DNA of 64,000 bases from an uncultured Pseudomonadales bacterium (GCA_964491115.1 CAZBEW010000001.1:62936-126935); one strand, 5' to 3'; numbered from the stretch's first letter, positions 9,043 through 48,950 are shown. A program made the numbers and translations. The notes: generated by a model from the letters alone, not told the origin.

Positions 9043-9048
9043 GAAAAT

Positions 9049-9336
9049 TTATCTGCCGAGCATCCCACCTAAACCACCAGTCATGCTTTGTAATTTTTTA
9101 GCTGCCACTTCTTGAGATTTTTTAATGGCTTTATTTAGAGCATTAACTAAATCAGCGCTGTGAATTCCTTGAACCGAAACATCTTTAATATTTTGATCGC
9201 CTGCAATTGTCACCACAATGTCCCCTTCTTCAACAACAATTTCTTCTGCTGCTAAATCTTGTTGCATTTGTTTGGCTTGCTTGCGCAATTTGTTAAGGTC
9301 TCCCAACTGGCCTAATAAACCTGCTTTGTCTGACAT
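9049..9336 (-). CDS. ybaB: YbaB/EbfC nucleoid-associated protein
   Basis: 95 aa with an LxKQAxQMQQ pattern, immediately downstream of dnaX. This is the conserved dnaX-ybaB arrangement. Confidence 0.8.
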   Translation of the reverse strand: MSDKAGLLGQLGDLNKLRKQAKQMQQDLAAEEIVVEEGDIVVTIAGDQNIKDVSVQGIHSADLVNALNKAIKKSQEVAAKKLQSMTGGLGGMLGR

Positions 9337-33889: not shown

Positions 33890-33938
33890 GCCCGATTAGC
33901 TAATACTAAGGGACACAAATATATTTAAGTGCAGGCCA

Positions 33939-33999
33939 ATCTATTTAGTAGTGAATTAATCTGTCTGTTGGGGCGATCTATTTAGTAGTGAATTAATCT
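33939..33999. repeat. 24-bp direct repeat, two copies with a 37-bp period, spanning the stop codon of the ddl-like gene
   Basis: ATCTATTTAGTAGTGAATTAATCT at 33939-33962 and 33976-33999. The second copy encodes the last 6 codons (DRLIHY) plus the stop of the ddl-like gene. Confidence 0.7.
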
Positions 34000-34971
34000 A
34001 TCCAATAAAGTATAGAAAGACACGCCATGAAGCTCTAAAATGCTGCCAATGGCACAGCTGCCACTTGGACCAAGAGCGGGATTAACGTTGACATCAATCA
34101 GATAATGACGACCAGCCTCATCAAGCCGAAAGTCAAATTTGGCATAGTCCTCAATTTTTAGAATATTAAAAGCGGTTTTAGCCGCTTTTTTAACTGATTC
34201 TGGCAATTCATACTTTTCATAAGTAATGGTTTTTTCTTCAGTTATCCAGTTGTCATCAAAAGTGACAATTTTGCCAAAAGGATCCTCGTTTGCTCGATGG
34301 AAGATTTTTTCAGCCGCGTAAATTTTTTTATTACCACCATCGACAAGCACCACAGTAATTTCTCGACCAGCTATAAATTCCTCTAATAAAATTGGCTGCT
34401 GATAGGTGTTGTACAAATAATTAATTTGCTGATCAGCCATTTTTTCATCAAAACAGACTGAGGCCTGCGACACCTCCAAAGAGCCATGATTTTCATTAAG
34501 TTTAACAAATAAAGGGTAATCTAATTCTTCATCAACCTCATCTGTCGAATGTCTAACTAATTGGTATTTAGGCGTGGTCACGCCATATTGCTCTAAGAGA
34601 GATTTGGTTAAATACTTATTGGCATTAATAGAAGTGGCCAGCATACCGCTGCCGGTATAAGATATTTGTAATAGCTCGAGGGTGGCTGGAATAGTACCAG
34701 CTAAATATTCTTGACCATAAACACTGTCCACCAAATTGATAACTTTGTCTGGCTTATATTCAAGCAAAGTATTGTGTAATTGAGCGTTGCCTGGAAAAGT
34801 TTCTACCTGATAACCCTTGCTTCTTAAGATTTCGGCAATTAATTGAGCGCGGCCTTTGACTTCTACTTCGGTAATATAAATTTCTTCAGTTGGAAAATAT
34901 TCGCGCTTGGCGTCAGAATACAAAATAGCAATCTTGTTAATTTTTGGTTTAACTTTAATGTTTAATGACAT
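33982..34971 (-). CDS. ddl: D-alanine--D-alanine ligase family ATP-grasp enzyme
   Basis: C-terminal block AKFDFRLDEAGRHYLIDVNVNPALGPSGS (the Ddl-type RxDFR...E.N..PG...S pattern). Confidence 0.65.
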   Translation of the reverse strand: MSLNIKVKPKINKIAILYSDAKREYFPTEEIYITEVEVKGRAQLIAEILRSKGYQVETFPGNAQLHNTLLEYKPDKVINLVDSVYGQEYLAGTIPATLELLQISYTGSGMLATSINANKYLTKSLLEQYGVTTPKYQLVRHSTDEVDEELDYPLFVKLNENHGSLEVSQASVCFDEKMADQQINYLYNTYQQPILLEEFIAGREITVVLVDGGNKKIYAAEKIFHRANEDPFGKIVTFDDNWITEEKTITYEKYELPESVKKAAKTAFNILKIEDYAKFDFRLDEAGRHYLIDVNVNPALGPSGSCAIGSILELHGVSFYTLLDRLIHY

Positions 34972-35050
34972 TGTGCAAATGTTAATTATAAGCTAAAGAT
35001 TTTATTATAAAATAGGATTAATGCTAGAGTTAATGGTACAATAGGAGATT

Positions 35051-35401
35051 ATGAAAAAAAATAACACAAAAATAACTGCCGAAACATCACTTAAAGTACC
35101 AGTTTCAGGCTTTTTCGATTTTATTAGAGAACAAGGAGTGGTTGGTTTAGCCGTCGGTTTTATTTTAGGTGGCTCAATTCGCTCAGTGGTTGATTCAATC
35201 GTGGTCGATATAATTAATCCTCTTTTGGGACTGCTGCTAGGGAAAGTTGACTTTTCTCAAGCTGTCTGGCAAATTGGTTCAGCTAAAATTGTCTGGGGAA
35301 ACTTCGTCACTGCGTTGATTAACTTCACCATTGTCTCTGCCGTTGTTTACTTTGGAGTTAAAGGCTTGGGCTTGGAAAAACTAGATAAGAAAAAGAAATA
35401 A
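35051..35401 (+). CDS. mscL: Large-conductance mechanosensitive channel
   Basis: 116 aa. GVVGLAVGFILGGSI...IINPLLGLLLGKVDFSQ is collinear with MscL TM1/loop/TM2. Confidence 0.85.
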   Translation: MKKNNTKITAETSLKVPVSGFFDFIREQGVVGLAVGFILGGSIRSVVDSIVVDIINPLLGLLLGKVDFSQAVWQIGSAKIVWGNFVTALINFTIVSAVVYFGVKGLGLEKLDKKKK

Positions 35402-35412
35402 ACAGTGGGTAA

Positions 35413-37623
35413 TTACCCTGTTTTTTGTTTAGCGTAGCGTTCTCGACTACTGCGAATTACTTTGTCTCGGTTTTGGTTTTTGCTACTGGCTAATCTTAGC
35501 GTGTAAGCTGGAAATGGCCGACTCAAAACATTATCAATAGAAATCTTGTTAATAATTTGGTATTTGCCCAAATTAACTAAATCATCTTGAGTATAGAGTC
35601 CCCCATATTCAGCTTGAAAATAATTGGCATCACCAGCTCCCATCACAAAACTAATAATATTGCCACAGTTACCAAAAATAGCGTTACGCACTTCTTCAGG
35701 AATTTGATCAATATATTGGTTGGCCAAAATTAAATTGAGTCGATATTTTCTCGCTTCAGATAAAATTTTGACAAAAGCATCGGTGGCAAAATTTTGAAAT
35801 TCATCGACATATAAATAAAAATCACGACGCTCTTCTTCATCGGTGTTGACTCTAGCCATCGCTGCCAATTGAATTTTAGTAATCATCATCGCGCCCAACA
35901 AGGTGGCATTGTCCTCACCCAAGCGCCCCTGAGACAAATTAATTAACAAAATTTTGCCCTCGTTCATTAATTTTTCAATGCTAAAAGATGATTGAGTGGT
36001 ATTAACCACATTGCGCACCAGCGGTGAAGAAACAAATTGACCAACCTTATTCAGAATTGAGGCAATTTGCTCTTGGCGTTGGCGATCACTCATTTTGTTA
36101 TATTCATTGACCCAAAAATTCTTTAAAATTGGATCATCGAGTTGGCTGACGACTTGCTCACGAAATTTTTCATTGGTTAATAAATCTAAAACATCTGACA
36201 GCTTGGCCTGCTCACTTTTTAATAAAGTCAGTAAACAATTGCGTAAAATATATTCAAGTCTTGGTCCCCAAGAATAACCATATAATTTCTTAAAAACTGA
36301 AATAATTCCAGAAGCAATCAGCTCCCGATGAGCTACATTTTCTCCCTCAAATAAATTAATCTGCACCGTGCGCTCTTGATCAGCTGGATCAAAGTAAATA
36401 ACATCATTAATCCTGTGCTTAGGAATATAATCCAATAAAGTTTCCACCAAATCCCCGTGGGGATCAATCACGCATAAACCCTTATTGTGTTTTAAGTCAT
36501 TAATGGCCATATTAGCCAGTAAAGTTGATTTACCAGTGCCAGTCTTACCAATGACATAAACATGACGACGTCGATCAGCATCAGTTAAGCCGTATTTACT
36601 TGTTTGATTTTTATAATTGGTTTCAGCAATAATATTAATCTTATTTTTGCTTTCTTCAGAACTGTTAATGTTGATGATTGGCAAATTGTCTGGAGCCTCA
36701 CCAAGAATTTTTTTACCCCAAGAAATATTATTAATATTACTCAGTTTTTGATTGGGAAAATGATAGATAGTTGCTAATTCATCGACACTCAGGGTCAGTG
36801 CTGGCACCAAGTTAAAGCTGCGATTTTTCATGCTTTTGATAAAGCAGTTTTTGAGAAAGAGACGTTTTGAGAAAAGTAATTCATTGCTTTCACTTCTAGA
36901 AGTGGCTTGATAAGCGGCAGCAATATTGCTCAATAAGAGTTGGCTTTTTTGACGATTGTCAGTGGCTACCGCAATTTTAAAAGCGGCTCTTAATTGCCTT
37001 TGTTCCAGTTTTTGCTTGATTAGTTGTTGCTGAGGGTGCTCGGCCAATTCTTCAGTTGATGGAGTTTGATCTATAGAAAAGAAAGGAAAATCAGTGGCTA
37101 ATAGCAATTGAATTAAAATCGTGTCCTCTCCCTCGTTTTTTGATAAAGTCGACATTAAAGTCGCTAAAGGATCAATATCTACAAAATCATGATGGGTTTT
37201 GAGTGGTAAATAATGACGATTTTTTAATCTAAAACTGGAAATAGCTAGTTGGCGATTTTCGAGTAAAAAATAATCAACTGGGTCAGAATCCATTTCTTCA
37301 ATGACGGCTTTGGGATAGCTGGCATGAATTGCTCCCTTAAAATAGGCTAAAAGTCGGACAGGCACGTTGATTAAAAAATGAATACTTTGCTCGCGCACTA
37401 GGATTTCAAAACTCAATCTTTCGTTTTTTCCCAATAATTTCTCAAACAAGTTGTTTTTAAGTTTTGGCAAAGTAGATAATAACTGCACTGCTGCCTCTGC
37501 AGTTTCTTCACCATCCTTGCTGGTTTTGATTTTGAGTAAGATATGATTTTTTGGCACGTTTTCAGTATAACAAATTATAATGAGCTTTTTTTCTCCAAAC
37601 GAAGTGCTCGATTTTTTTGCCAT
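35413..37623 (-). CDS. P-loop ATPase of the FtsK/HerA/VirD4 (type IV coupling protein-like) superfamily with a novel 350-aa N-terminal domain
   Basis: Walker A VIGKTGTGKSTLL, then VIDPHGD, Walker B FYLYVDEFQNF, and LILANQ. No TM helices. The ORF start overlaps the upstream membrane-protein gene by 49 nt. Confidence 0.6.
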   Translation of the reverse strand: MAKKSSTSFGEKKLIIICYTENVPKNHILLKIKTSKDGEETAEAAVQLLSTLPKLKNNLFEKLLGKNERLSFEILVREQSIHFLINVPVRLLAYFKGAIHASYPKAVIEEMDSDPVDYFLLENRQLAISSFRLKNRHYLPLKTHHDFVDIDPLATLMSTLSKNEGEDTILIQLLLATDFPFFSIDQTPSTEELAEHPQQQLIKQKLEQRQLRAAFKIAVATDNRQKSQLLLSNIAAAYQATSRSESNELLFSKRLFLKNCFIKSMKNRSFNLVPALTLSVDELATIYHFPNQKLSNINNISWGKKILGEAPDNLPIININSSEESKNKINIIAETNYKNQTSKYGLTDADRRRHVYVIGKTGTGKSTLLANMAINDLKHNKGLCVIDPHGDLVETLLDYIPKHRINDVIYFDPADQERTVQINLFEGENVAHRELIASGIISVFKKLYGYSWGPRLEYILRNCLLTLLKSEQAKLSDVLDLLTNEKFREQVVSQLDDPILKNFWVNEYNKMSDRQRQEQIASILNKVGQFVSSPLVRNVVNTTQSSFSIEKLMNEGKILLINLSQGRLGEDNATLLGAMMITKIQLAAMARVNTDEEERRDFYLYVDEFQNFATDAFVKILSEARKYRLNLILANQYIDQIPEEVRNAIFGNCGNIISFVMGAGDANYFQAEYGGLYTQDDLVNLGKYQIINKISIDNVLSRPFPAYTLRLASSKNQNRDKVIRSSRERYAKQKTG

Positions 37624-40600
37624 TTAGCTAGCAAAATTATTAACAAAGGCATTAAGAGCACCAGTCCCCCCAATTCTAAAAGTTGAGGCCAATAAACAAT
37701 ATAAATCTGACTATTATCGGTTGGTTTATTGATCACCCAGGCATTAGCCCAATTACTTAATTTATGATGTTCTAATTTTTGCCCATCTTGATAAGCGACC
37801 CAAGCAGGATCAAAAGCTTGAGATAGACTTAAGTATTTTGTTTGACAATTAGACGATAAATTAACTTGATAGAGCCAGAAAGCTCTTTTTTGCACAGTAA
37901 AATCACAAGCGCTAGGCTGTTCTTGAAAAACTTGAGCAGTAGCATTTCGCCATGATAAATTTTTCAAGAAATTATATGGCCAAAAAAATACTTCAAGTGA
38001 TTCAATCAGATCTTCATTTAGCTCTCGTCCATAAGAGTCAATTGAGAAATACAAGGTGTAAGCTTGATTAAAATCTTCGGTTGGTGGTAAAACTTGATAG
38101 TTGATTCCTTCGCTTAAATAAGTTTCGATGGGACTGCGACCCGAGCTATCTGATTGCACAGCAAAAACAGCGGGTAGACTAGCTAAATTCTTTGCCTCAA
38201 GCCTGATTAAATAGCCTAAATCGTGCTTTAAATTGGCCAAGGGGAAATGATCGCAGATGCTGGTGCCAACTGCCTGATAAAAAGTACCTTCAGCCCACTG
38301 TTCCTTAGCCACAGAACCTCCTTGTAATGGTCGACAATCAACTGGTTCAAAAACATTTTTCTCGCTCGTCATCAGATTACTTTGCAAAATTACTCGGGGA
38401 ATTTTCACTAATAATTGCTCAGTTCCTTGATGGGATTCTTGCTCAACCCGCTTAGTTTGCTCAACCTGCTCAACTTGCACATTAAACAAATTTAAATCAA
38501 AAAAAGCATAGTCAAAATAAGCAGTACTTTGCTCGCTACTTAAGGCTATCGTGTTAGAAACGCTGGTGTTGAGCAATAAATCAATTTGGCCACTGTTTTC
38601 CAGCTGAGCAATTAAGTGATTGTTAATATTTAGATAACAGGCCTCGCTAGCTAAACATAAATGAGCATCAAAAACAAAATCTTTTTCTAAAGTAAAATTT
38701 GTTATTTGGTCTTGCTCAATAATTTCTGGAGCTAACAAACTAAAATTGAGTTGAGCCTCACCATTTTCCACCAACCAAGTTAAACGAAAAGGCAAGTCTT
38801 TTTCACTTTTAAGTAAGTCTGCAAAGTGCAATTGAAAGTCGGTGCTGGGGCTAGCTTTCAAGCTAGTAAGATAAAAATAATGCTCATCTTCACTTAAAGA
38901 AAATTCAAGGTTTTTTTGCAGATGATTGCTAAATAATGCTGGAAAAGGATAAATAAAATCAGGATTAATAGAAGCGGCTCGCTGCTCAGTAAGCAGCTGA
39001 TCATCAATACTTAAATAATGAGACAAATCAGCAAAAGCCTGATCAAGCCAACTAAAGCGATAATTATTTATCACTCTAGGTAAATCATCATACAAGCTAA
39101 TGAATTCTTGACGAGCCTGGTGCGGCTGTTTTTTGACTTGATAAATGCTTAAAAAGTCATATTGTTCAAGCAAGTGAATATTAGTCGAACTTTGTAAAAA
39201 ATCACTTATAGCCTGGTAATTAAAGGGTTTTTTGGTATTACGATTAATAATTGATTCATCCAAGATTAAATAGTCAACATCGTATTGGGCGAAGACATTT
39301 TCTAGGGCAACAATATCTTGTCGATCGAGGGCCAACTGCAATTGCCAGTAATATCGTTCACTGGCTTCGCTCCAAACATCGAAAGCTCGATCTAAAATAG
39401 GCTGTTTAATACCATACCAAATAAATCCAGAGCCACGATAACCCCAATCATTCCATTGCCAACCATAAAAAGTATGCTGAGGTAAATTAGCGATGCGGCT
39501 GCTCGCTGGAGCTTGATCTTTAAAATAATCAAAAAGTTGAAAATAGGCATCGGGAATATTTATTCGTAAACGCGAATAGAAAAAATTACCAGTAAAACTT
39601 GGCCATGAATAATACAACAAGGACAGGAAAAACAAGCCAGACAAAATAAATTGCCAAACCCTCTTCTTTAATAAAGAAAAAAGCCAAGCCAAGCCAAAAG
39701 TCAGCAACAAACTATAAAAAAGACTGTAGGGCACAATCCATTTGGTGAAAGCTGAGCGAAATATTTGGCCAAACAAAGGCAAATATTGGCGTAAAAAATC
39801 ATAAAGAAAAGCCAAGGGTGGATTAGAACCTGCCAAAATAAAAACTGTAAACAAAAAAACCAGCAGAATGGCTAAATGACTGTGAGCTAAAAATGATTTA
39901 TTTTTTTTGCTGAAAATTAATAATCCCAAACCCAAAAGCAATAATAAAAAATAGAGCCAGCTTACAATAATAACGCCTGGTTGATGAAAGTGAGTTTTCC
40001 ACACATCCATCAGGTAAACACTATTTCCCCATTGATTAAAGTCTGTGTAATCAAGCCAAAAACCCTTGAGAGTGGCTAAATTAGCAAAACTACCAAATTG
40101 ATTATTTTTTAAGAAAGTTACCTCAGTAGACATCAGGTTAATTTTGGCATCGACGGTGGTGTTACTGGCAAAAATTGTAAAATAAATGACAGGTAATAGC
40201 CAAAAAGCATTGCTTAAAAAGACTATTAATAAAACTAGGGCAAATTTTTTCCAAGTAATTTTTTTCTTGAGTAGAAAAAAAACCATAATAATCAATAAAA
40301 TTAACAAATAAACAATGAAGACCGTTTGGACGTAAGCAAAAATGCTCCCCAAAAGAGAAAACAAGATAAACAATAATAAGTTTTTTTTAGTCGATTGTTC
40401 TAGATAGCTTAAAAAGTAATAAATTAACCATGGGAAAAAAGCAAAAAAAGCGGCAAAAGGCTCAAAAGTGACATAAAAATTTTGCACTGTGCCCAAGTTT
40501 AATAAATAAAAACTAGCACCAAGAACAGCCAATAGTCGACATTGCTTATTGTTTCTTAATAAATGGGCAAATAAACGATAAGCTCCTAAAACACCCAGTA

Positions 40601-40910
40601 ATAAAGACAAATAATTCCAGAAATATCTTAGCCACTCTTGTTTTAAGATTAAAGATAAGGGCCATAACAACAGCTGGCGAATTAAGTCTGCTCCATGAGC
40701 CATCCCTCCCAATAAACCCAAACCCTGATATTCTTGCCAAACAGCATTAAAAGTTCTTTCTAAATTAATCCCCAAATCAAGCTCAACGGGTAAATTATCC
40801 CAACCAATTAAATAAGTATCTGGGGTAAAGTTCTGATAACACAAAACAGTGACTAAGAAAAACAAAAGCAGCTGAGGCCAGATCTTTTTAACTAGGGAAA
40901 TAAATTTCAT
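37575..40910 (-). CDS. Giant 1111-aa polytopic membrane protein; possibly a GT-C-type glycosyltransferase (AftD/DUF3367-like)
   Basis: About 14 hydrophobic helices in the first roughly 470 aa, then a roughly 600-aa soluble domain with a final C-terminal TM (LGGLVLLMPLLIILLA). Family assignment is tentative. Confidence 0.55.
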   Translation of the reverse strand: MKFISLVKKIWPQLLLFFLVTVLCYQNFTPDTYLIGWDNLPVELDLGINLERTFNAVWQEYQGLGLLGGMAHGADLIRQLLLWPLSLILKQEWLRYFWNYLSLLLGVLGAYRLFAHLLRNNKQCRLLAVLGASFYLLNLGTVQNFYVTFEPFAAFFAFFPWLIYYFLSYLEQSTKKNLLLFILFSLLGSIFAYVQTVFIVYLLILLIIMVFFLLKKKITWKKFALVLLIVFLSNAFWLLPVIYFTIFASNTTVDAKINLMSTEVTFLKNNQFGSFANLATLKGFWLDYTDFNQWGNSVYLMDVWKTHFHQPGVIIVSWLYFLLLLLGLGLLIFSKKNKSFLAHSHLAILLVFLFTVFILAGSNPPLAFLYDFLRQYLPLFGQIFRSAFTKWIVPYSLFYSLLLTFGLAWLFSLLKKRVWQFILSGLFFLSLLYYSWPSFTGNFFYSRLRINIPDAYFQLFDYFKDQAPASSRIANLPQHTFYGWQWNDWGYRGSGFIWYGIKQPILDRAFDVWSEASERYYWQLQLALDRQDIVALENVFAQYDVDYLILDESIINRNTKKPFNYQAISDFLQSSTNIHLLEQYDFLSIYQVKKQPHQARQEFISLYDDLPRVINNYRFSWLDQAFADLSHYLSIDDQLLTEQRAASINPDFIYPFPALFSNHLQKNLEFSLSEDEHYFYLTSLKASPSTDFQLHFADLLKSEKDLPFRLTWLVENGEAQLNFSLLAPEIIEQDQITNFTLEKDFVFDAHLCLASEACYLNINNHLIAQLENSGQIDLLLNTSVSNTIALSSEQSTAYFDYAFFDLNLFNVQVEQVEQTKRVEQESHQGTEQLLVKIPRVILQSNLMTSEKNVFEPVDCRPLQGGSVAKEQWAEGTFYQAVGTSICDHFPLANLKHDLGYLIRLEAKNLASLPAVFAVQSDSSGRSPIETYLSEGINYQVLPPTEDFNQAYTLYFSIDSYGRELNEDLIESLEVFFWPYNFLKNLSWRNATAQVFQEQPSACDFTVQKRAFWLYQVNLSSNCQTKYLSLSQAFDPAWVAYQDGQKLEHHKLSNWANAWVINKPTDNSQIYIVYWPQLLELGGLVLLMPLLIILLAKWQKNRALRLEKKSSL

Positions 40911-40936
40911 AACTCAATTGTATACAAAAACTAAGC

Positions 40937-42358
40937 TTAAGTGCCAGCTTGAGAATATATTGGCTTGTGCCAAAAATATCCTTTTTCTAGTCCGCTTGTT
41001 TTGACAATTTGTTCTTTAACAACTTGTTTTTTGACTGGCGTTATATGACTTAAATATTGTCCAGCAACCTCATTCCAGTCATGCGCTTTAGATAATTGAC
41101 GAGCAAAATTCCACATTTTTTGGCGTAAAACTGGATTTTGCCAGTTGTTTAAAAATACTTTGGCAAAAGAAGTGTAATTTAAGTCAAATAATAATTGATC
41201 AGTAGCGACACCATGCTTTTTAGCTAATTTTTGCACCTCATCTGTTCTTAAATTTTCGGCAAAAAAACTTGAGCAAATAAAAGACTTACGATATTGCAAA
41301 GCTAGAGCTAGAGCTCCAGAACTCGACATACGCGCACGATAAGGAAAAACTACTAAATCTGCCACTGCAAAAATCTTTGCCACCTCTTTTTCTGGCACGA
41401 AGCCAGTGTGAATAATATCTTGACTATTATTTTTGATTAAATTGTGCAGATTTTGATAAAAAGCACGCAAATGAGCCTGATTTTTTTGGGTAGGTGCCAC
41501 ATCTCCTGCTAATAATAATTTAGTATTCTTGCTTAACTTGCCAGATTTTTTTAAACGCAAAAAGTTCTTAATCAACCAATCAGTACCTTTGTACCAAGAA
41601 TGATAACCATAGGCTAAAACTAGTCGATCACTGGCTTGACAGCCCAAACTTTGCTTAAAATTAGCTTGTTGTTCTTGAGTTAAATTTTGATAACCATTAA
41701 TACCGTGAGGAATAATAGCTAATTTACGCTGAGGCACTAAGTTTTGTAATTTTTCAGCTAAAAATTGATCATGAACCAATATTTTTTGACTAGCCAAGCC
41801 CAAAATACTATAAAACAGACGCATCGCGCCATTAAAAAACAGAGTTTTTAGCGAACTAGCAGACAAGGCCACTTGACCAGACAAAGTAGCTAAATCTAAA
41901 ACTACTTGATGTAGCATGCTGTAGATTTTTTTGCCAAGCAAGCGTTGCCAAAGAAAGAAAAAAGGCAATAAAAAAGTAATAATTTCTTTGCCAAATAAAC
42001 TAAATTCAAATTGGAGGAGGATGTTTTTTGCCTGAGAAAAACGTTTAAATTGACTGTTTAGTTGAGTAAAAAGCTGAAGTGAGTTAACTGTATAGCTGGG
42101 AACAACTAAAATGTTCTTTTTGAGTAAATAAGCCTGGTTGTTTTCACCAACAATTTGCTCACACAGAACCACCACTCGTTGTTGATTGGGGAAATGTTGA
42201 AGTAATAATTGGCTATAACGAGCCACTGCGTTACGCTTGGCAATTTCCTCACCTTGCAGAGGAAAACTAGAAACTAGCAACAAAGTAGCTGAATCATTAA
42301 AGCGCTGGTAAGTCTTGTTACTTAATTTCATAATTTTTGGTAAAACAAAAACCACCAA
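40937..42358 (-). CDS. GT-B fold glycosyltransferase (GT4 / glycosyl-transferase group 1)
   Basis: The C-terminal half carries the GT1 signature pattern (LLLAGD...VPEKEVAKIFAVADLVVFPY...SSGALALALQYRKSFI). Confidence 0.7.
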   Translation of the reverse strand: MVVFVLPKIMKLSNKTYQRFNDSATLLLVSSFPLQGEEIAKRNAVARYSQLLLQHFPNQQRVVVLCEQIVGENNQAYLLKKNILVVPSYTVNSLQLFTQLNSQFKRFSQAKNILLQFEFSLFGKEIITFLLPFFFLWQRLLGKKIYSMLHQVVLDLATLSGQVALSASSLKTLFFNGAMRLFYSILGLASQKILVHDQFLAEKLQNLVPQRKLAIIPHGINGYQNLTQEQQANFKQSLGCQASDRLVLAYGYHSWYKGTDWLIKNFLRLKKSGKLSKNTKLLLAGDVAPTQKNQAHLRAFYQNLHNLIKNNSQDIIHTGFVPEKEVAKIFAVADLVVFPYRARMSSSGALALALQYRKSFICSSFFAENLRTDEVQKLAKKHGVATDQLLFDLNYTSFAKVFLNNWQNPVLRQKMWNFARQLSKAHDWNEVAGQYLSHITPVKKQVVKEQIVKTSGLEKGYFWHKPIYSQAGT

Positions 42359-42424
42359 TCCTAATTGATGAGCTTTGTTTTACCCGCGTCTCCTATGTTT
42401 CAAGGGGGACGCGGGTAAGGAGGA

Positions 42425-43342
42425 TTATGGGGCATAAGCCGTGAGGCTTTGCCCTGGAAAGGTGGCGGCCGCCCAGGCCTTTACCTGGGCTTCGGTCCAG
42501 CTGCTTGGCATTAGCCAAGCTTGGACCGTTTTATAAGCAATATTGTCCTGGGCATTCACCCAGAACACCAGCTGTTCATCCAACAGCGCGACAGTAGTCG
42601 CGCCTCGAGCGCCAATGCTGGCGCTGAAAGCTGAGCCATCCCAAACCCCGTGTACCGAAATAGACTGGGGTTGGTCAAAGTCGGCGTTGTCTGGCAAAAC
42701 CACCACTGGTGTGGCTTGTCCTAAGGGAAAAACAAAAATGTTTTTCCCGTAGTGGACAAAAATTGTCCAGTCGTAACCATTTGCTATCTGGTTCTGACGT
42801 TTTGCCGTCACGAACTCAGATGCGATCGGCGGCTTTGTAGTGGAAAAGTCCGCCATGTTCCAGTCTGCGGGATACACCCACAGGCTGGCCTCACGAACGG
42901 AGAGTTCCCACTCCACACCTGGGTCAAAGACCCAAATATGGTGCTCGGGATCGAGGGTCTGGCGACCCTCAATCAAAATGTTGCAACCAGCATAGTCTGC
43001 CAGCTGCTTCATTCCTGAAGACAACTTATAAAAGCCGTCTTCTTTCAGGTTGCTGAGGAATTCGATCCTCATTCCCTGATATCCGAGCGGACAATCCGCG
43101 ATTGCGACCACGGGTTCTTCCACCGGTACTTCAACCACTGGTTCTTCAACTACGGGTTCGACCACGGGTTCGACCACCGGGTCTTCGACCACGGGGTCGA
43201 CCAGCACCGGTTCCACGATAGGTACGGTTGTTTCCTTTACCTCTGTTGGAGGCAAAGGGGGTGCTTCTTGCTCAACCGGAGTCGAGCAAGAGGCGAGTAA
43301 ACTCGCCACTAACAACAAAACAAACAAAATTTTTGCGCGCAT
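42425..43342 (-). CDS. Lipoprotein with a (P-V-V-E)n linker and a C-terminal globular domain; the gene is strongly GC-rich relative to the genome
   Basis: Real start MRAKILFVLLLVASLLASCS (ATG 43342, SD AAGGAG 8 nt upstream). Lipobox L-A-S-C. Roughly 30 aa of PVVE-type repeats. The DNA is visibly GC-rich (GGCGGCCGCCCAGGCC...), unlike all neighbours. Confidence 0.7.
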   Translation of the reverse strand: MRAKILFVLLLVASLLASCSTPVEQEAPPLPPTEVKETTVPIVEPVLVDPVVEDPVVEPVVEPVVEEPVVEVPVEEPVVAIADCPLGYQGMRIEFLSNLKEDGFYKLSSGMKQLADYAGCNILIEGRQTLDPEHHIWVFDPGVEWELSVREASLWVYPADWNMADFSTTKPPIASEFVTAKRQNQIANGYDWTIFVHYGKNIFVFPLGQATPVVVLPDNADFDQPQSISVHGVWDGSAFSASIGARGATTVALLDEQLVFWVNAQDNIAYKTVQAWLMPSSWTEAQVKAWAAATFPGQSLTAYAP

Positions 43343-43708
43343 GATTTTTTCTCCTTTTTCTTGCGCAAATTCCACTAGACAGCAGTGGTCACCGACTCGT
43401 CCATTGCCCTGATGGCACGCTTGGACCAGCTTCTCTAACAACCACCTCAATCATGATTGCTAAAAAAGCTGGACCAAAATGCCTCGGGCATTATTTCCTC
43501 CTTGTTAAGGTGCGTCTCTTTTCGTAAGTGACTCAAAACTCCAGAAGCAATTTCTAGGTTTTAAGCTTTACTTAAGAGCTCCTTCTTCTACTCTTTCGAG
43601 TAGAGAATAATTTTTGACACAAGGGTTGGGGAAAAAAGATGGAGCTGTCAAAAACTATTCTCTAATCAAAAGATTCATTACTTATTTATTAATTTATTAA
43701 TATATATA

Positions 43709-43737
43709 AGTATATCAAATAAAGTCATTTTTGTCAA
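43709..43737 (-). promoter_or_regulatory. Sigma70 promoter (TTGACA-17-TATACT) reading toward the GC-rich lipoprotein gene
   Basis: Minus-strand sequence: ATGTCCCATAATA TTGACA aaaatgactttatttga TATACT. About 25 nt are shared with the promoter at 44658-44686. Confidence 0.55.
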
Positions 43738-43830
43738 TATTATGGGACATTACAATTATCTTTTTGCCAAATTTCTTAACTCAAGATCAAATAATCATTT
43801 AAGTTGAAAAGTCACCTTAGCTATTTTAAA

Positions 43831-43856
43831 AAGCCCTTCTGTCAAAGAAGGGCTTT
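43831..43856 (-). terminator. Rho-independent terminator downstream of the sortase-substrate gene (palindromic, potentially bidirectional)
   Basis: AAGCCCTTC-tgtcaaa-GAAGGGCTT, with a T-run on the minus strand (ttttaaaa follows). Confidence 0.55.
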
Positions 43857-43878
43857 CAATTTCATATTTCTGTAAATT

Positions 43879-44556
43879 TTATTTACTAAATTTCTTTGAT
43901 TTGCCTAAAGCAAAAGCACCTACGCCAGCTAAAGCCACCGCTTCTAAAATTAAAACTGTGCTTAAATCAAAACCAGTGTCTGGAGTGCTCTCAGTAATAA
44001 TGGCAGCACCATCGCTTTTTACACAAAAGCTAGCATAATCACTATCACTCACATCATCTGGGCGAGAATAAACTTTGGCCTTATTGGTAATACAAGTAGT
44101 ACCAGCTGGTAATTCGTTTTTACCCTTAAATCGAGCAGTAAAATAGACAGTAATTTCTTCATCAGGATCAACGGTATCAATAATAAATTTTAATTCATTG
44201 TCCTTAAATTCAACTGGGTATTCTTTGCCGTCTGCTCCTAAATAGAACATGTAATCAACTAAACGAGCGAAATCATCAATTAGACGAACCTTGTTGGTTT
44301 TAACATCGCTCACATTTTTAATGCGTAATCTAAATTTAACTTCTTGCTCAGGAGCAAAAGTGTAAGAGCTAGCAGCAATATTGTCCCAATATTCATTGGC
44401 TTTGGGATTAAAAATCTTTTTATCTAGGCTTAGATCGCCGTTTTCACAGACTTCACCACCGCCATAAACGGTGTGACAATCGCGAGCACTGGCAACATTA
44501 AAAGTCACTAAAAGAAAAGCTGTTGCTAATAAAAGGGAAGAAATTATTTTTTTCAT
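43879..44556 (-). CDS. Secreted surface protein with a C-terminal sortase-type sorting signal (TPDTG motif, TM, basic tail)
   Basis: Signal peptide MKKIISSLLLATAFLLVTFNVASA. The C-terminus reads ...ESTPDTGFDLSTVLILEAVALAGVGAFALGKSKKFSK (motif, hydrophobic helix, K-rich tail). It lies next to the sortase gene. Confidence 0.6.
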   Translation of the reverse strand: MKKIISSLLLATAFLLVTFNVASARDCHTVYGGGEVCENGDLSLDKKIFNPKANEYWDNIAASSYTFAPEQEVKFRLRIKNVSDVKTNKVRLIDDFARLVDYMFYLGADGKEYPVEFKDNELKFIIDTVDPDEEITVYFTARFKGKNELPAGTTCITNKAKVYSRPDDVSDSDYASFCVKSDGAAIITESTPDTGFDLSTVLILEAVALAGVGAFALGKSKKFSK

Positions 44557-44657
44557 AAATACTTTGTTATTTTTTTTATTTTTTTATTAATTTAATTTAT
44601 TTATTTTTAATTTAATTATATTTAATTTAATAAATGTAATAATGTGTCTGATACTCT

Positions 44658-44686
44658 ATTATATACTTATAATTAATTATTGTCAA
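44658..44686 (-). promoter_or_regulatory. Consensus sigma70 promoter (TTGACA-17-TATAAT) for the sortase-substrate gene
   Basis: Minus-strand sequence: AATATCCCATAATA TTGACA ataattaattataagta TATAAT. A perfect match to consensus in both hexamers and spacing. Confidence 0.65.
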
Positions 44687-44698
44687 TATTATGGGATA

Positions 44699-45520
44699 TT
44701 ATTCCTTAACAACAGGCACAGCGGTAATAAATAAACGCTGCCAACTGGTGCCCGGTGGCCAACAAGTTTGCAGTAATAAGATATTTTCCTCTTGAAGATT
44801 GTTAACAAAATCAATTTCTGTACTAGCGACTACATTTTGGGCAGTGACTTCGTAGACAAATTGTTCATCTCCCAAATGAAGAATGATTTGCTCGCCAATA
44901 GCTAAATCTTTGATTTGATAAAAAACCGCATTGTAAGCTTCGACATTCCATAAACCATTAGTAGAATGCCCAAAAATATAAATTAATTTTTCTTGACCAG
45001 GAAAAGCTGAGTTTTTGGCATGTGCCACACCAGATTCTAGTGCTGATTGATATTCTTCAGCATTATTAGGATCGATATTGGGATGAACCTGCTCGTAGAG
45101 TTCTAGGCTAGGTATTTCAATATAAAAAGGTAAGGTCGCGTAGTCGGGAGTTTCTATGAGCTTGGCTAAAGCGCTTTGACCGGCTTCTTGGCTGGAGGCC
45201 TCTTCTCTGGCAAAAATTGGCCAAGTCTTGTCGAGTTGCATTTTTGTCCAATCAAAAAAGGCAAAAGTATTCTCCTCTACTTCTTGTGGTAAATTTTTGA
45301 AAAATTCAGGAACAGCACTGATGAGCTGTTTTGATTGATTAAGTGTATTTGGTAATTTTTTAATTGCTTGAAAACTAAAAAATGGATTGCTTAAGATAAG
45401 CAGTAAAAAACTCAAAACAAAAGAAAAGATCGCCAACTTCTTGAGGCTTTTTGCTTTTTGTAAAATAAATTTAGCCGGGGATTTTTGATATAATCTCACC
45501 CTCGTCTTTTTATTTATCAT
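44699..45520 (-). CDS. Sortase (cysteine transpeptidase), N-terminally membrane-anchored
   Basis: TM at residues about 30-50. Catalytic His in LIYIFGHS, Cys in LLLQTCWPP (TLxTC-type), and Arg in SWQRLFI. Confidence 0.8.
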   Translation of the reverse strand: MINKKTRVRLYQKSPAKFILQKAKSLKKLAIFSFVLSFLLLILSNPFFSFQAIKKLPNTLNQSKQLISAVPEFFKNLPQEVEENTFAFFDWTKMQLDKTWPIFAREEASSQEAGQSALAKLIETPDYATLPFYIEIPSLELYEQVHPNIDPNNAEEYQSALESGVAHAKNSAFPGQEKLIYIFGHSTNGLWNVEAYNAVFYQIKDLAIGEQIILHLGDEQFVYEVTAQNVVASTEIDFVNNLQEENILLLQTCWPPGTSWQRLFITAVPVVKE

Positions 45521-45528
45521 TATGGGAC

Positions 45529-45556
45529 ATTATACTGAAAAATGTGAAAAAATCAA
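45529..45556 (-). promoter_or_regulatory. Putative promoter for the sortase gene, predicted to give a leaderless or near-leaderless mRNA
   Basis: Minus-strand sequence: TTGATT-16-TATAAT gtcccata ATG. It contains the shared GTCCCATAAT motif directly abutting the start codon. Confidence 0.4.
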
Positions 45557-45602: not shown

Positions 45603-46280
45603 ATGTTAAGTGCGAGATACGAGCGGAAATTTTTTTTAACTGAGCTAAATGATAAGCAATTAGAAACCATTATTAAATTGCACCCGGCAATTTTCTCAGA
45701 AATATATCACGAGCGCCAGGTTAACAGCCTTTATTTTGACAATCATAGTCTAGATTTTTATCAACATAATGTTCAAGGCAGTCAGGAACGTTTGAAAATT
45801 AGGCTGCGCTGGTATGATGACTTAGAAAATGCCCTCGACCCCAATTTGGAATTTAAAATTAAAGTTGGCTTGCTAGGCACTAAAGAGACAATTGCCTGCC
45901 AAAGTTTTTCCTCAGCTGGTGATTTGCCAATGATTAATGACTTGCTTATTACTGAAAATAATTTTGCATCGCTAAGTAAATATAAGCTAAAAAATCTCAA
46001 ACCAGTGATTTTAATTTCATATTTTCGGCGCTATTTTCAATCGGCTGATAAAAAATATCGCTTAACCATTGATCGTGATTTACGTTTTTATCAAGTTAAT
46101 AAAAATCAAATAACTTGGAACACTAAACTACAAATCAACGCAAATATCTTAGAATTAAAGTATGATCAGCAAAACGATACCGAGGCCGATAAAATTAGCT
46201 CATTTTTTCCTTTTCGCATGACTAAATCGTCTAAATATGTATTGGGAATGTTAAAAGTTTATCCGCAAGTTAAGATTTAA
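45603..46280 (+). CDS. VTC-domain (CYTH-like polyphosphate-polymerase-domain) protein
   Basis: N-term MLSARYERKFFL is typical of bacterial VTC-domain proteins. 225 aa. First gene of a tight three-gene plus-strand cluster. Confidence 0.55.
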   Translation: MLSARYERKFFLTELNDKQLETIIKLHPAIFSEIYHERQVNSLYFDNHSLDFYQHNVQGSQERLKIRLRWYDDLENALDPNLEFKIKVGLLGTKETIACQSFSSAGDLPMINDLLITENNFASLSKYKLKNLKPVILISYFRRYFQSADKKYRLTIDRDLRFYQVNKNQITWNTKLQINANILELKYDQQNDTEADKISSFFPFRMTKSSKYVLGMLKVYPQVKI

Positions 46281-46281
46281 C

Positions 46282-48180
46282 ATGATTTTAAAAAAAAATA
46301 AAAAATTTCACTTAGCTTGGAAAAAAATTTTTAAATATTTAGCTGCTTTTTTAATTTTATTTTTTTTCATTTTAATTTTATTTAATTTTGATTTTATAAA
46401 AATTAATTTATTAAAACAAAAAATAAGCTTTGATCCAGATATTAATTTTTCCAAGGAAGCGATTAATTTAACTTTAAGTTCACCAATTAAAAAGGCCACA
46501 ATTTATTACACTAAAGATGGCACTACTCCAGATGAAAGTAGCGAGCAATACCAAAATCCCATTGAAATTAAGGAAACTACCACTTTAAAATTTGTTCTTT
46601 ATAAAAAAGGCAAACAACTGGGGACCGTGCAAACCCATGATCTGTTTATTAATACCCATCACGATCTCGCAGTAATTTCTTTATCTACGGATCCAGTTAA
46701 TTTATGGGATGAAGAAACTGGCATTTATACAGAAGAAAATTATGCAAAGAAGGGCAAGGAGTGGGAAAGAAATGGGGTAATAAATTTTTATGAAGAAGAT
46801 GGCACACGCGGATTTTCTCGAGAAGTGGGGATTAGGATTCATGGCGGTGGAACACGAGGGTTACCGCAAAAATCTTTTCGGATTTTAATTACTAACAAGG
46901 AAAATAATCAAACTCTAAAATATCCCTTATTCCCTGATGGCAAAGTGCAGAATTTTAATTCTTTTATTTTAAGAAATGCTGGTGGTGATTGGAGCCATAC
47001 CCATTTGAGAGATGCGTTAATGCAAGAAATCGTTGAAGACGCCAATTTAACAGTTGATTTACAAGATTATCGTCCAGCAGTCCTCTATTTAAATGGTCAA
47101 TATTGGGGCTTATATGACATTCGTGAAAGATATGACCAAGATTATTTTAGCAATCACTATGGTGCCGATGCAAAACGCGTCAATATTTATTACGTGCCTC
47201 ACGATGTTGGCGTTGATCGCGGTCGAATACAACTGGACGAGGGAAAAGACACCGGGGGCGTTGAACTTTATAACAAGCTTTTTAATGAAACAAAAAGTTG
47301 CCAAAGTTGTACCGACTTAAATAATTTAAAACAATATCTGGACCCAATTAACTACCGCGATTATTTAATTACCGAATTACATTTTAATAATTATGATTGG
47401 CCTTATGGTAACGCTAAACTCTGGCGCTATGAAACCAATGCTTTTGAACCGAATGCTCCCAATGGTTTAGATGGGCGCTTCCGCTGGTTACTTTTTGATT
47501 TAGATGTGGGATTTGGAGCTGGTAAACAAAGTGAGGAAGAAATGCAAAGATCTGCCAAAGCCAATCCCTATCAAGATCGCTTGGTTGATGATCACTTCCC
47601 CTTTAGAAATTTATTTTATAACTACAGCTTTGCTAATGAGTTTGTCAATCAATATGCTGATTTATTGAATACATCCTTTAAATATGAAAACGTCGTAGCA
47701 AAAATTGATGAGCTAGCAGGCGCAATTGACTCTGAAATGCCTAGACAAATTGAGCGCTGGCATAATAAAGAAACTTGGCCAGGAATAATAAATAATCAAG
47801 AAACTATTGATAAAATTAAAAACATCGGCTCTTATGAAGAATGGAAAAACAATGTTGAATTATTAAAAGTCTATGCTTACTGGCGACCAATCTATATGAA
47901 AGAACATACGATCAACTTTTTTAATCTTTCAGGAATGAGCAATATCAGCATCAATACTAATAACCCTGCTTGTGGCTCAATTAAGGTCAACAGCATTATT
48001 ATTGATAAAGAACAAATGCCTTGGGTTGGAGAATATTTTAATGATGTTAGAATTAATATAGAAGCAATTTCAAGCGCCGGCTGCAAATTTGTTTCTTGGA
48101 CTGGCGATATTGAATCCAAAAATAAGAAAATTAATTTTTTACTTGATGCAAATATTAATTTAATTGCTAATTATAAATAA
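46282..48180 (+). CDS. CotH-family (atypical kinase-like) protein
   Basis: N-terminal TM. CotH core blocks GIRIHGGGTRGLPQKSFRILI, RNAGGDWSHTHLRDAL and YWGLYDIRERYD. Confidence 0.75.
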   Translation: MILKKNKKFHLAWKKIFKYLAAFLILFFFILILFNFDFIKINLLKQKISFDPDINFSKEAINLTLSSPIKKATIYYTKDGTTPDESSEQYQNPIEIKETTTLKFVLYKKGKQLGTVQTHDLFINTHHDLAVISLSTDPVNLWDEETGIYTEENYAKKGKEWERNGVINFYEEDGTRGFSREVGIRIHGGGTRGLPQKSFRILITNKENNQTLKYPLFPDGKVQNFNSFILRNAGGDWSHTHLRDALMQEIVEDANLTVDLQDYRPAVLYLNGQYWGLYDIRERYDQDYFSNHYGADAKRVNIYYVPHDVGVDRGRIQLDEGKDTGGVELYNKLFNETKSCQSCTDLNNLKQYLDPINYRDYLITELHFNNYDWPYGNAKLWRYETNAFEPNAPNGLDGRFRWLLFDLDVGFGAGKQSEEEMQRSAKANPYQDRLVDDHFPFRNLFYNYSFANEFVNQYADLLNTSFKYENVVAKIDELAGAIDSEMPRQIERWHNKETWPGIINNQETIDKIKNIGSYEEWKNNVELLKVYAYWRPIYMKEHTINFFNLSGMSNISINTNNPACGSIKVNSIIIDKEQMPWVGEYFNDVRINIEAISSAGCKFVSWTGDIESKNKKINFLLDANINLIANYK

Positions 48181-48242
48181 TAATCCTTTAATTATCTTAA
48201 AAATATTTTACAATTATAAACACTTAGCAAAGAAAGAAACTT

Positions 48243-48950
48243 ATGGCAAAAATTAATCAACTGGAATTTTTAAGTTCCTATTTTGACGACAGTAAAATTA
48301 CTGGCTCCTTAAATGAATTTATTTTAGATGTCGGTATTTTGGTCTTAATTTCATTTTTATTGTCAATAATCTATCAAAAATTTGGCAATTCTCTATCTAA
48401 TCGCAAAAAATTTGCGGCAAATTTTGTTTTATTGTCATTAATTACTATGATGATCATTTCTGTGATTAGATCATCTTTAGCCCTATCTTTAGGTTTGGTT
48501 GGAGCTTTGTCAATTATTAGGTTTCGCTCAGCTATCAAAGAGCCAGAAGAATTAGCATATATTTTTCTAGCGGTATCCTTAGGTTTGGCCTTTGGTGCCG
48601 GTCAGAGAGAAGTAGCAATTGTCTTTTTTGTTTTAATTAGCCTTGTGATTATATTAAGAAGCCTGATCGCGAAAAAGTTTAACTTTTTCAACCTTAAAAC
48701 TGATGAGGTTTTATATTTGAACATTAAGGCTGATGCTAAAATGGATTTAAAAAAGATCAATAATGTTTTGGATCAATACTGTAGCTTTATTGATTTAAAG
48801 CGAGTGGATGAAAAAGATAATCAAGCTGAGTTTTTATTTTTAATTAAGTTGAACTCTTTAGACAAGCTAGTGAGCATGAAAGATGCCCTGCTTTCTCTCG
48901 ATAAAAAAATAGATCTAACTTTGCTCAATGATGAAGGTTTGTTTAATTAA
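48243..48950 (+). CDS. DUF4956-like membrane protein
   Basis: 235 aa with about 4 TM helices, then a soluble tail. This is the canonical partner of VTC and CotH genes. Confidence 0.6.
   Translation: MAKINQLEFLSSYFDDSKITGSLNEFILDVGILVLISFLLSIIYQKFGNSLSNRKKFAANFVLLSLITMMIISVIRSSLALSLGLVGALSIIRFRSAIKEPEELAYIFLAVSLGLAFGAGQREVAIVFFVLISLVIILRSLIAKKFNFFNLKTDEVLYLNIKADAKMDLKKINNVLDQYCSFIDLKRVDEKDNQAEFLFLIKLNSLDKLVSMKDALLSLDKKIDLTLLNDEGLFN

Follow-up and report, generated by a model that had tools for sequence, protein, structure and literature searches.

A 64,000-nucleotide (nt) stretch of DNA recorded as coming from an uncultured Pseudomonadales bacterium (GCA_964491115.1 CAZBEW010000001.1:62936-126935; the whole stretch is called the window below) carries on its minus strand, within 42.4-45.6 kb, a module of three genes for a sortase, its putative substrate and a lipoprotein, whose promoters share a short sequence element, TATCCYATAAY. 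This element is conserved at the same positions in relatives and is found at many promoters outside the module, and the interval between the third promoter and the lipoprotein gene is a large structured RNA. Our overall reading, that a lineage-wide, protein-bound promoter element coordinates a surface-protein module, we regard as evenly balanced between right and wrong. The features themselves are real, conserved and partly new. An initial annotation, made from the sequence alone, had described three consecutive minus-strand genes (a sortase, a protein ending in TPDTG and a lipoprotein of anomalous GC content) with a motif embedded in their promoters. Calling of open reading frames (ORFs) confirmed the three successive genes, for the sortase, a 225-amino-acid (aa) secreted protein and a GC-rich lipoprotein, and the breadth of the promoter element together with the RNA exceeds that first claim in interest.

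The 9-mer TCCCATAAT occurs four times in the 64 kb against an expectation of 0.66, a count reached in none of 100 shuffles. Three copies lie on the minus strand, all at gene boundaries (45527-45519, 44696-44688 and 43747-43739), while the fourth, at 11933 on the plus strand inside a gene, probably arose by chance. The motif common to the three sites is really 14 nt long, TAATRTCCCATAAT, and is exact at all three; two of the sites are identical over the 17-mer TCCCATAATATTGACAA. Copy 2 (TAATATCCCATAAT, 44688-44701, minus strand), which starts with the sortase stop codon TAA, and copy 3 (TAATGTCCCATAAT, 43739-43752, minus strand) each lie 1 nt upstream of a -35 box, and 23 of 25 nt are identical between them. 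The two promoters concerned, described as near-identical in the initial annotation, are indeed so: the substrate promoter P_sub (44658-44686, minus strand) reads TTGACA-N17-TATAAT, with 12 of 12 matches to the sigma70-type hexamers, and P_RNA (43709-43737, minus strand) reads TTGACA-N17-TATACT with a TGn extended -10 and 11 of 12 matches. In a scan of the whole window these were the only promoters of the TTGACA type with at least 11 of 12 matches. One other promoter reached that score, TTTACA-17-TATAAT before a tRNA, and it is without the motif, which shows that the motif is not part of every strong promoter.

Copy 1 (TAATGTCCCATAAT, 45519-45532, minus strand) lies between the -10 box and the start codon of the sortase gene, a placement that had been noticed at the outset and that holds. 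The sortase promoter P_srt (45529-45556, minus strand) has a -35 box TTGATT (45556-45551), a 16-nt spacer and a -10 box TATAAT (45534-45529), giving 10 of 12 matches and the string TTGATT-16-TATAAT-G-TCCCATAAT, in which the ATG overlaps the end of the motif. Because the last two bases of copy 1 are the AT of this ATG, the arrangement implies a sortase mRNA that is predicted to be leaderless or nearly so. All three predicted promoters have sigma70-type hexamers with a spacing of 16-18 nt, and all are kept in relatives. The claim that each gene has its own motif promoter stands as far as the motif is concerned, which is present at all three, but the promoter assigned to the lipoprotein gene lies 400 nt upstream of its ATG with the RNA in between. 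A motif-like sequence at the lipoprotein stop codon, TTATGCCCCATAAT (42437-42424, minus strand), encodes a conserved C-terminal Tyr-Ala-Pro-stop (YAP-stop), and its resemblance to the motif is therefore coincidence. An integron- or cassette-like reading, with every gene flanked by motif copies, was ruled out, the fourth copy that it would include being these YAP-stop codons; there are no nearby recombinase genes and no inverted-repeat structure.

Relatives of the module were gathered by exact protein look-up together with one genome per species, and span sortase identities from 94% down to 49%. According to their record titles they are metagenome-assembled genomes of Candidatus Paceibacterota / Pacebacteria; the environments concerned are groundwater and an anaerobic digester. 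The exact sortase sequence has no record in assemblies, and the exact substrate sequence was found on one 1.9-kb contig only. In a sample of 14 GTDB species-representative loci plus other relatives, TCCYATAAY was present at the same three positions in approximately 20 relatives (sortase identity 49-94%), in almost every locus. The initial annotation had allowed that its motif might turn up at many unrelated, non-promoter positions; the window holds one such intragenic copy, and only three stray matches to TCC[CT]ATAA[TC] occur in about 300 kb of flanks. Consensus profiles built from 23, 20 and 20 distinct promoter sequences show that conservation starts exactly at the motif, with none upstream. 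At the sortase promoter TTGnnn-N17-TATAAT is kept in 23 distinct relatives, and TATAAT-(A/G)-TCCYATAAT-G at the sortase start is also kept in relatives. Since the three positions are kept and the upstream flanks are not, the motif is a real, selected cis-element under purifying selection. In distant relatives the substrate ATG lies 8 nt past the -10 box, from which it appears that leaderless starts are normal in this module. In one relative two tandem motif copies (TCCTATAATATAATCCTATAAC) precede the substrate promoter (L021:10835-10886).

The near-identity of copies 2 and 3 had raised the suggestion of recent modular duplication, and it is what would favour a duplicated or mobile promoter cassette without shared regulatory meaning. 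This explanation is scarcely credible. In genomes whose sortase identity has fallen as low as 49%, the orthologous promoters still carry the element at each of the three sites, so that the arrangement predates that divergence, and spacers and flanks have diverged and are specific to the promoter type: P_sub retains its own spacer, ...TTATAAnTATATAAT, and P_RNA retains AAAATGACTT..TTGATATACT, with the spacer sequence AAAATGACTTTATTTGA also conserved. Conserved positions combined with a characteristic spacer for each promoter type rule out recent duplication.

The distribution of the element beyond the module was examined by scanning metagenome contigs with TCCYATAAYNTTGACA-N17-TATAMT, a pattern whose 18 specified bases would, by our estimate, allow few chance matches per terabase. 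At least 120 stretches were recovered, containing at least 112 unique promoter instances of the form TATCCYATAAY-n-TTGACA-N17-TATAMT. Among the matches listed, positions that the pattern left free are themselves biased, position -1 being A in 82% and position -2 being T in 62%, from which the element is taken to be the 11-nt TATCCYATAAY. Approximately 27 unique instances among these matches are sortase modules and more than 80 are distinct non-module promoters; 65 of 107 downstream ORFs encode a signal peptide, a transmembrane (TM) segment or a lipobox, and the other downstream genes include those for ribosomal proteins S16 and L21, glycosyltransferases and an aminotransferase. The named protein clusters to which downstream genes belong are from Ca. 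Pacebacteria / Paceibacterota, with one TrmB-like helix-turn-helix cluster labelled Nanoarchaeia at NCBI, a label that may reflect mis-binning. The gene for this TrmB-like protein (L053:72-830, minus strand) is itself under a motif promoter and is a speculative candidate for an autoregulated factor. That the CATAAT/TATAAT lying upstream might serve a tandem promoter as its -10 box was ruled out, as no -35-like signal is seen 17 nt upstream across the at least 112 instances.

When the 9-mer alone was searched in 695 kb of fetched loci, about 20 further imperfect promoters with the 1-nt spacing to TTGAC came to light. This spacing is found in approximately 19 of 20 cases detected without demanding a promoter, and in all module promoters. 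The same search returned about 13 copies of the sortase-promoter type and three promoters, on three contigs, in which TCCTATAAT itself is the -10 region. The element is thus predicted to mark a lineage-wide promoter class or global regulon and is not sortase-specific; extrapolated, there would be a few dozen such promoters (roughly 20-30) per genome of about 1 Mb. This bears on the proposal, made in the initial annotation, of co-regulation by a factor that binds the motif: the motif is a selected cis-element, but it is not private to the module. It is very improbable that a regulator serving only the sortase module uses the motif as its operator, which would make the three promoters a private regulon. 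Three copies within 1.8 kb, no other promoter copies in the window and almost none in the 10-kb flanks of relatives would all fit such a regulon, but the composite element is shared by the non-module promoters counted above, and some contigs (L042/L088, L050, L079) carry several motif promoters and no sortase. The biased unspecified positions and the conserved leaders downstream argue against dismissing these non-module matches as chance.

As to what reads the element, our preference, tentative and at an even chance or slightly less, is a conserved sequence-specific protein bound to TATCCYATAAY, either a global activator of the class II type or a dual regulator. With the element at -47 to -37, a fixed 1 nt from the -35 box, the factor would boost very strong promoters throughout the lineage, many of them before lipoprotein or secreted-protein genes with long leaders. 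Three separate transcription units would then form a conserved Paceibacterota cell-surface module. In the first a weak promoter would give a leaderless sortase mRNA; in the second a consensus promoter would drive a dedicated immunoglobulin (Ig)-like substrate that bears a [TAS]PxTG signal and whose gene ends in a terminator; in the third another consensus promoter would drive a structured leader RNA and, behind it, a fast-evolving, GC-recoded lipoprotein gene. Binding at the site between -10 and +1 of the sortase promoter would restrain initiation, and one factor could in this way set low expression of the enzyme and high expression of its substrate.

A possible though less probable explanation is that RNA polymerase (RNAP) itself reads the element, which would be a determinant specific to the lineage, of UP-like or 'extended -35' character, and would be touched by the C-terminal domain of the alpha subunit (alpha-CTD) or by sigma region 4. 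There would then be no dedicated regulator, and the element would mark the strongest constitutive promoters. UP elements are A/T-rich alpha-CTD sites (AAAWWTWTTTT..AAAA) at -40 to -60, and CRP at -41.5 is an example of a class II activator. TATCCYATAAY is like such sites in its fixed distance to the -35 box, in its association with strong sigma70-type promoters and in its reuse across one genome, and its location is that of the proximal UP subsite. The near-constant 1-nt spacing, the presence of the element at the only two near-perfect TTGACA promoters of the window and its occurrence before the S16 and L21 genes also favour RNAP. The sequence, however, does not fit: it is neither A/T-tract-like nor palindromic, and its invariant CC is unlike the UP consensus. 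The strong tRNA promoter of the window is without it. Furthermore, a 9- to 11-mer is strictly conserved between the sortase -10 box and ATG, where a UP-like role is impossible, and in three contigs the element is itself the -10 region. A class II-type regulator is preferred because it would explain all three placements, whereas an RNAP-intrinsic, UP-like element would explain only the first.

Several points weigh against this preference. No protein emerged as a candidate for binding the element. Asymmetry and a length of only about 11 bp would be uncommon in the site of a dimeric regulator, and the fixed spacing to the -35 box, the consensus promoters and the ribosomal-protein genes fit an element read by RNAP equally well. 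The metagenome pattern demanded perfect hexamers, so the sample is biased towards strong promoters, and the number of promoters per genome comes from fragments and is not a complete-genome count. All transcription start sites were placed from hexamer positions, and the leaderless status of mRNAs and the RNA ends are predictions. Protein binding, the direction of regulation and the function of the RNA are what we infer from sequence features, conservation, covariation, distribution and protein families, which were computed here.

Compared by eye, the consensus of the element does not match the DnaA box (TTATCCACA): only TATCC is common to the two, and the 3' half is YATAAY rather than ACA. Features of this general kind, upstream promoter elements and operators, are known; this particular sequence is without description in the literature searched on the motif and on promoter architecture in the candidate phyla radiation (CPR). 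To our knowledge, almost nothing is known of the transcription signals and regulatory RNAs of the CPR/Patescibacteria, which are largely uncultivated. A conserved promoter element that is easy to search for would help to predict where operons start and which genes are strongly expressed, and would provide a bait for the factor that binds it.

The initial annotation passed over the approximately 360 nt between P_RNA and the lipoprotein ATG, which constitute a structured leader RNA (43343-43702, minus strand, as are its parts; the start is placed from the promoter) identified by covariation, minimum free energy (MFE) and a covariance model. The interval is highly conserved, with nhmmer E-values down to 1e-110 in relatives. 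Three alignments were made (A1-A3), the last of 20 sequences. A3 supports a 5' domain P1-P3 (43666-43501) made up of a long hairpin P1, a GAAA-capped P2 and a P3 that encloses P3a, a 3' domain (43491-43403) formed by the long irregular helix P4/P4'/P5, and a hairpin P7 (43388-43372); the RNA also contains a Shine-Dalgarno sequence GGAG (43354-43351). In this structure the paired share of cells is 96.7%, and compensatory changes are seen at 37 of 78 pairs, a result that none of 500 shuffles equalled. Slid controls gave 39-48% paired cells and 6-14 compensatory pairs. The window copy has an MFE of -120.9 kcal/mol (z = -7.6), and folding of the single sequence regains the long helix. Local hairpins that could form instead of P4/P4' (ATGCC..GGCAT and GTGCC..GGCA) are worse supported than the long-range pairing. 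A 14-codon ORF, MPEAFWSSFFSNHD (43450-43494, minus strand), with a perfect AAGGAGG Shine-Dalgarno sequence lies within helix P4; it was rejected as a gene, being unconserved (ML-stop in L006, no ATG in L008) in a segment that covaries as a helix.

With a covariance model of the 5' domain (R1) the window yields a single copy, which scores 159 bits, and 645 kb of loci yield only module-linked copies; no homologues of the RNA were found behind other motif promoters by covariance-model search of those 645 kb. Comparison of the window and L008 copies with the families of Rfam 15, even at E <= 10, gave only spurious matches to miRNA hairpins, and T-box, ydaO, yybP and other known leaders were set aside as there were no Rfam matches. 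The RNA is accordingly a candidate new family, and a large covarying RNA without a database match would be a candidate for a new class of regulatory RNA.

The leader RNA always follows the substrate gene, and each of approximately 25 distinct copies has behind it, within 20-40 nt, a Shine-Dalgarno sequence and a gene for a lipoprotein whose signal peptide is conserved. A conserved, covarying element placed between promoter and Shine-Dalgarno sequence/ATG in every copy is what is expected of a riboswitch-type leader. We consider it an even chance or somewhat better that the RNA is a cis-acting leader controlling lipoprotein expression, in which case it would act in a riboswitch-like manner or as a protein-binding leader. 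For an anti-Shine-Dalgarno-like CACCUU there are two alternative pairing partners, both AAGG segments, and several relatives have a U-tract after P7, which is absent in the window's own lineage; such alternative pairings and the U-tract are hints of a switch and no more.

That the RNA is instead an independent, stable non-coding RNA, with the lipoprotein gene expressed merely by read-through, is unlikely, although part of the evidence points that way and so weighs against a cis-acting leader. In a lineage with a 42%-identical sortase the motif promoter after the substrate gene drives a self-complementary non-coding sequence of about 190 nt with no ORF behind it (L142 reverse-complement 8964-9170; also L083, L098, L109 and L135), and this may be a stand-alone small RNA in the slot of the leader RNA. 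The U-rich tract after P7 in several relatives, and the replacement of the 3' half in some lineages with the 5' domain kept, would also fit an independent RNA. On the other side stand the lipoprotein gene behind every one of the approximately 25 copies, the lack of the U-tract in the window's lineage and a covarying hairpin that extends into the coding region (see below). The cis-acting leader that we prefer is like the large leaders and riboswitches (T-box, cobalamin, ydaO) and orphan RNAs (raiA, OLE, ROOL) in having more than 300 nt, multiple helices and abundant covariation, in its position between a promoter and a Shine-Dalgarno sequence with ORF, in its highly conserved single-stranded joining regions and in the possible alternative pairings of Shine-Dalgarno-like and anti-Shine-Dalgarno-like segments. 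It differs in matching no Rfam 15 family and in occurring in one syntenic context only, and, unlike the case with riboswitches, the gene behind it encodes a lipoprotein and not a metabolic or transport protein.

A second family of leaders accounts for 16 instances among the matches listed from the metagenome scan and begins right after the -10 box with CCCCYCGAUACUUAAAAAGUAUCAAACUUUAACAAAGUG... (L025, L030, L032, L057, L063, L064, L067, L068, L108 and L132). It is about 110 nt long with three hairpins and a few compensatory pairs and has no Rfam match, and GC-rich genes for zinc-ribbon or membrane proteins lie 250-370 nt downstream. This leader and the module RNA (43514-43520, minus strand), otherwise unrelated, share a mini-hairpin YUU-AAC-AAR (CCUUAACAAGG vs CUUUAACAAAG), which could be a common protein-binding or switching element.

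The lipoprotein gene (305 aa, 42425-43342, minus strand) starts at the ATG 3' of an AAGGAG Shine-Dalgarno sequence and encodes a lipobox LLASC, a Pro/Val/Glu-rich linker and a folded C-terminal domain. Neither Pfam nor NCBIfam gave a match to it and no structural neighbour was found, the C-terminal domain being without a known fold neighbour; only 20 homologues were found, all on the same kind of contig. In a window that is AT-rich throughout (GC about 0.35) the gene has a GC content of 0.53 and a third-position content (GC3) of 0.57, which is six standard deviations above the GC3 of the 55 other ORFs (0.283 +/- 0.047). This composition, together with mature protein parts that vary between relatives, is what would suggest a recently acquired foreign cassette. 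Such an acquisition is highly improbable, for in all relatives this slot is occupied by a GC-rich lipoprotein gene (0.46-0.60) that shares the leader RNA, signal peptide and hairpin; the joint pattern of atypical composition and variable presence in relatives that marks a horizontally acquired island is not seen. A GC excess behind long leaders is, moreover, general among motif promoters. At 62 non-module motif promoters longer leaders go with a greater GC excess in the ORF downstream (rho 0.60, p = 3e-7), and in metagenome loci L024-L143 the ORFs behind long leaders are GC-rich compared with their contigs, lipoprotein genes by an average of +0.14. Conservation in relatives and this general pattern argue against recent horizontal gene transfer (HGT) as the source of the anomaly.

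A hairpin GGCGAG-UUUA-CUCGCC (43292-43307, minus strand) lies in the signal-peptide codons just before the lipobox Cys, and its two arms covary between relatives: GCUGAG/CUCAGC in L017, GCCAGCAU/AUGCUGGC in L013 and GAUCGCCAG/CUGGCGAUC in L022. The covariation is maintained even where it alters the protein (ASLLAA to LSLLSA), and these coordinated residue changes point to selection at the RNA level within the coding sequence. The conserved GC recoding of surface-protein genes linked to leaders is puzzling in its composition, and automated detection of HGT would misinterpret it.

It is conceivable, though we think it improbable, that Paceibacterota and perhaps other CPR bacteria possess a dedicated high-expression system for surface proteins, composed of three undescribed parts: the lineage-specific promoter determinant, long structured leaders and GC-recoded coding regions with conserved hairpins in the signal-peptide codons. 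If so, TATCCYATAAY fused to the -35 box would be read by RNAP or a global factor, and the module RNA would be a new class of riboswitch or RNA-protein switch that controls and stabilises the mRNAs of fast-evolving lipoproteins used in host contact.

The sortase (273 aa, 44699-45520, minus strand) has an N-terminal TM anchor and the catalytic His, Cys and Arg, and no curated class fits it. Classification with hidden Markov models (HMMs), as had been proposed, gave matches to Pfam Sortase PF04203 (E = 2.9e-19, 69.5 bits, cut-off 26.6) and TIGR01076 (50.5 bits, cut-off 39.35), while the NCBIfam NF0337xx class models all scored far below their cut-offs (C 50/160, D 46.7/165, E 27/160 and F 16.5/166 bits). 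In alignments with the solved class D and class C sortases 4d70 and 6ixz, the segments IFGHST, LLLQTCWPPG (a TLxTC-like motif) and WQRLFIT fall at the HRN, TC and ERL positions, which places the catalytic triad. The 4D70 structure is that of C. perfringens SrtD, and 6IXZ and 7D6P are pilus-specific class C sortases. All 277 homologues of the sortase are of CPR type; sortases are common in CPR bacteria (Meheust et al., 2019, PMC6744442).

The substrate (225 aa, 43879-44556, minus strand) has a signal peptide, an Ig-like beta-sandwich and a tripartite sorting-signal layout of TPDTG (43986-43972), a TM helix, FDLSTVLILEAVALAGVGAFALG, and the basic tail KSKKFSK. The claim of a non-standard signal that is not LPXTG was borne out: in 56 substrate homologues, which share contigs with the sortase, the layout is [TAS]P[DAEST]TG, TM helix and basic tail, and position 1 is always T, A or S. 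Retention of [TAS]PxTG in all 56 makes the variant signal a conserved family trait. Leu is absent from position 1, and no NCBIfam match at E <= 1 to the LPXTG-anchor family (TIGR01167) was found. Class E sortases use LAXTG. The module resembles class C, D and E systems with LPXTG-type substrates in the sortase fold family, the His-Cys-Arg residues and the N-terminal membrane anchor, and in the adjacent dedicated substrate with signal peptide, pentapeptide ending in TG, hydrophobic segment and basic tail, a substrate that is an Ig-like beta-sandwich as in pilins and many surface proteins. It differs from them in the class scores of the sortase, in T, A or S and not L at position 1 of the signal and in the missing TIGR01167 match. 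The predicted pairing with [TAS]PxTG would widen the known specificity of sortases as a variant of a known system, and it points to an abundant surface protein; the literature searched on CPR sortase signals held nothing specific.

An AlphaFold2 (AF2) model of the substrate (pLDDT, the predicted local distance difference test score, 82.9) is a single Ig-like beta-sandwich, with a weak DUF11-like match in sequence. Structural matches were generic only, to Ig-like or pilin-like proteins including, at low TM-score, Gram-positive pilins. Like the pilins of Pam pili the substrate is CPR-specific, abundant, secreted and Ig-like with paired cysteines. Pam pilins, however, have two domains, assemble by donor-strand exchange with chaperone-like proteins and rely neither on a sortase nor on a C-terminal sorting signal (Troman et al., 2026, bioRxiv 10.64898/2026.03.03.709456). 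The substrate has a single domain and a sortase signal, and this difference in architecture ruled it out as a Pam pilin.

An intrinsic terminator, AAAGCCCTTCT...AGAAGGGCTTTTT (43827-43856, minus strand), lies 3' of the substrate gene; its terminator-like stem could be aligned, and equivalent hairpins are present in relatives. Another hairpin, ACCCGCGTC...GACGCGGGT (42382-42416, minus strand), without a U-tract, lies 3' of the lipoprotein stop codon. The gene order in relatives is sortase, substrate, a gap of about 520 nt, lipoprotein, glycosyltransferase of the GT4 family and a membrane protein of about 1100 aa. The last two are the conserved downstream neighbours of the module (37575-42358, minus strand), represented in the window by the GT4 gene at 40937-42358 and a gene for a 1111-aa polytopic membrane protein at 37575-40910, and their synteny is kept in L002, L004, L006 and L008. 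The 1111-aa protein has no Pfam match; being syntenic after the glycosyltransferase across relatives, it may join the same surface-assembly module. Further downstream (32819-37623) are genes for a TrwB/VirD4-like type IV coupling protein (35413-37623), MscL, a D-Ala-D-Ala ligase and a PGA_cap capsule-synthesis protein, an envelope and conjugation-type context. On the other side of the module a divergent plus-strand cluster (45603-48950), which is not conserved beside the module in relatives, encodes a VTC-domain protein, a CotH kinase-like protein with chitobiase/Fn3-associated domains and a DUF4956 protein.

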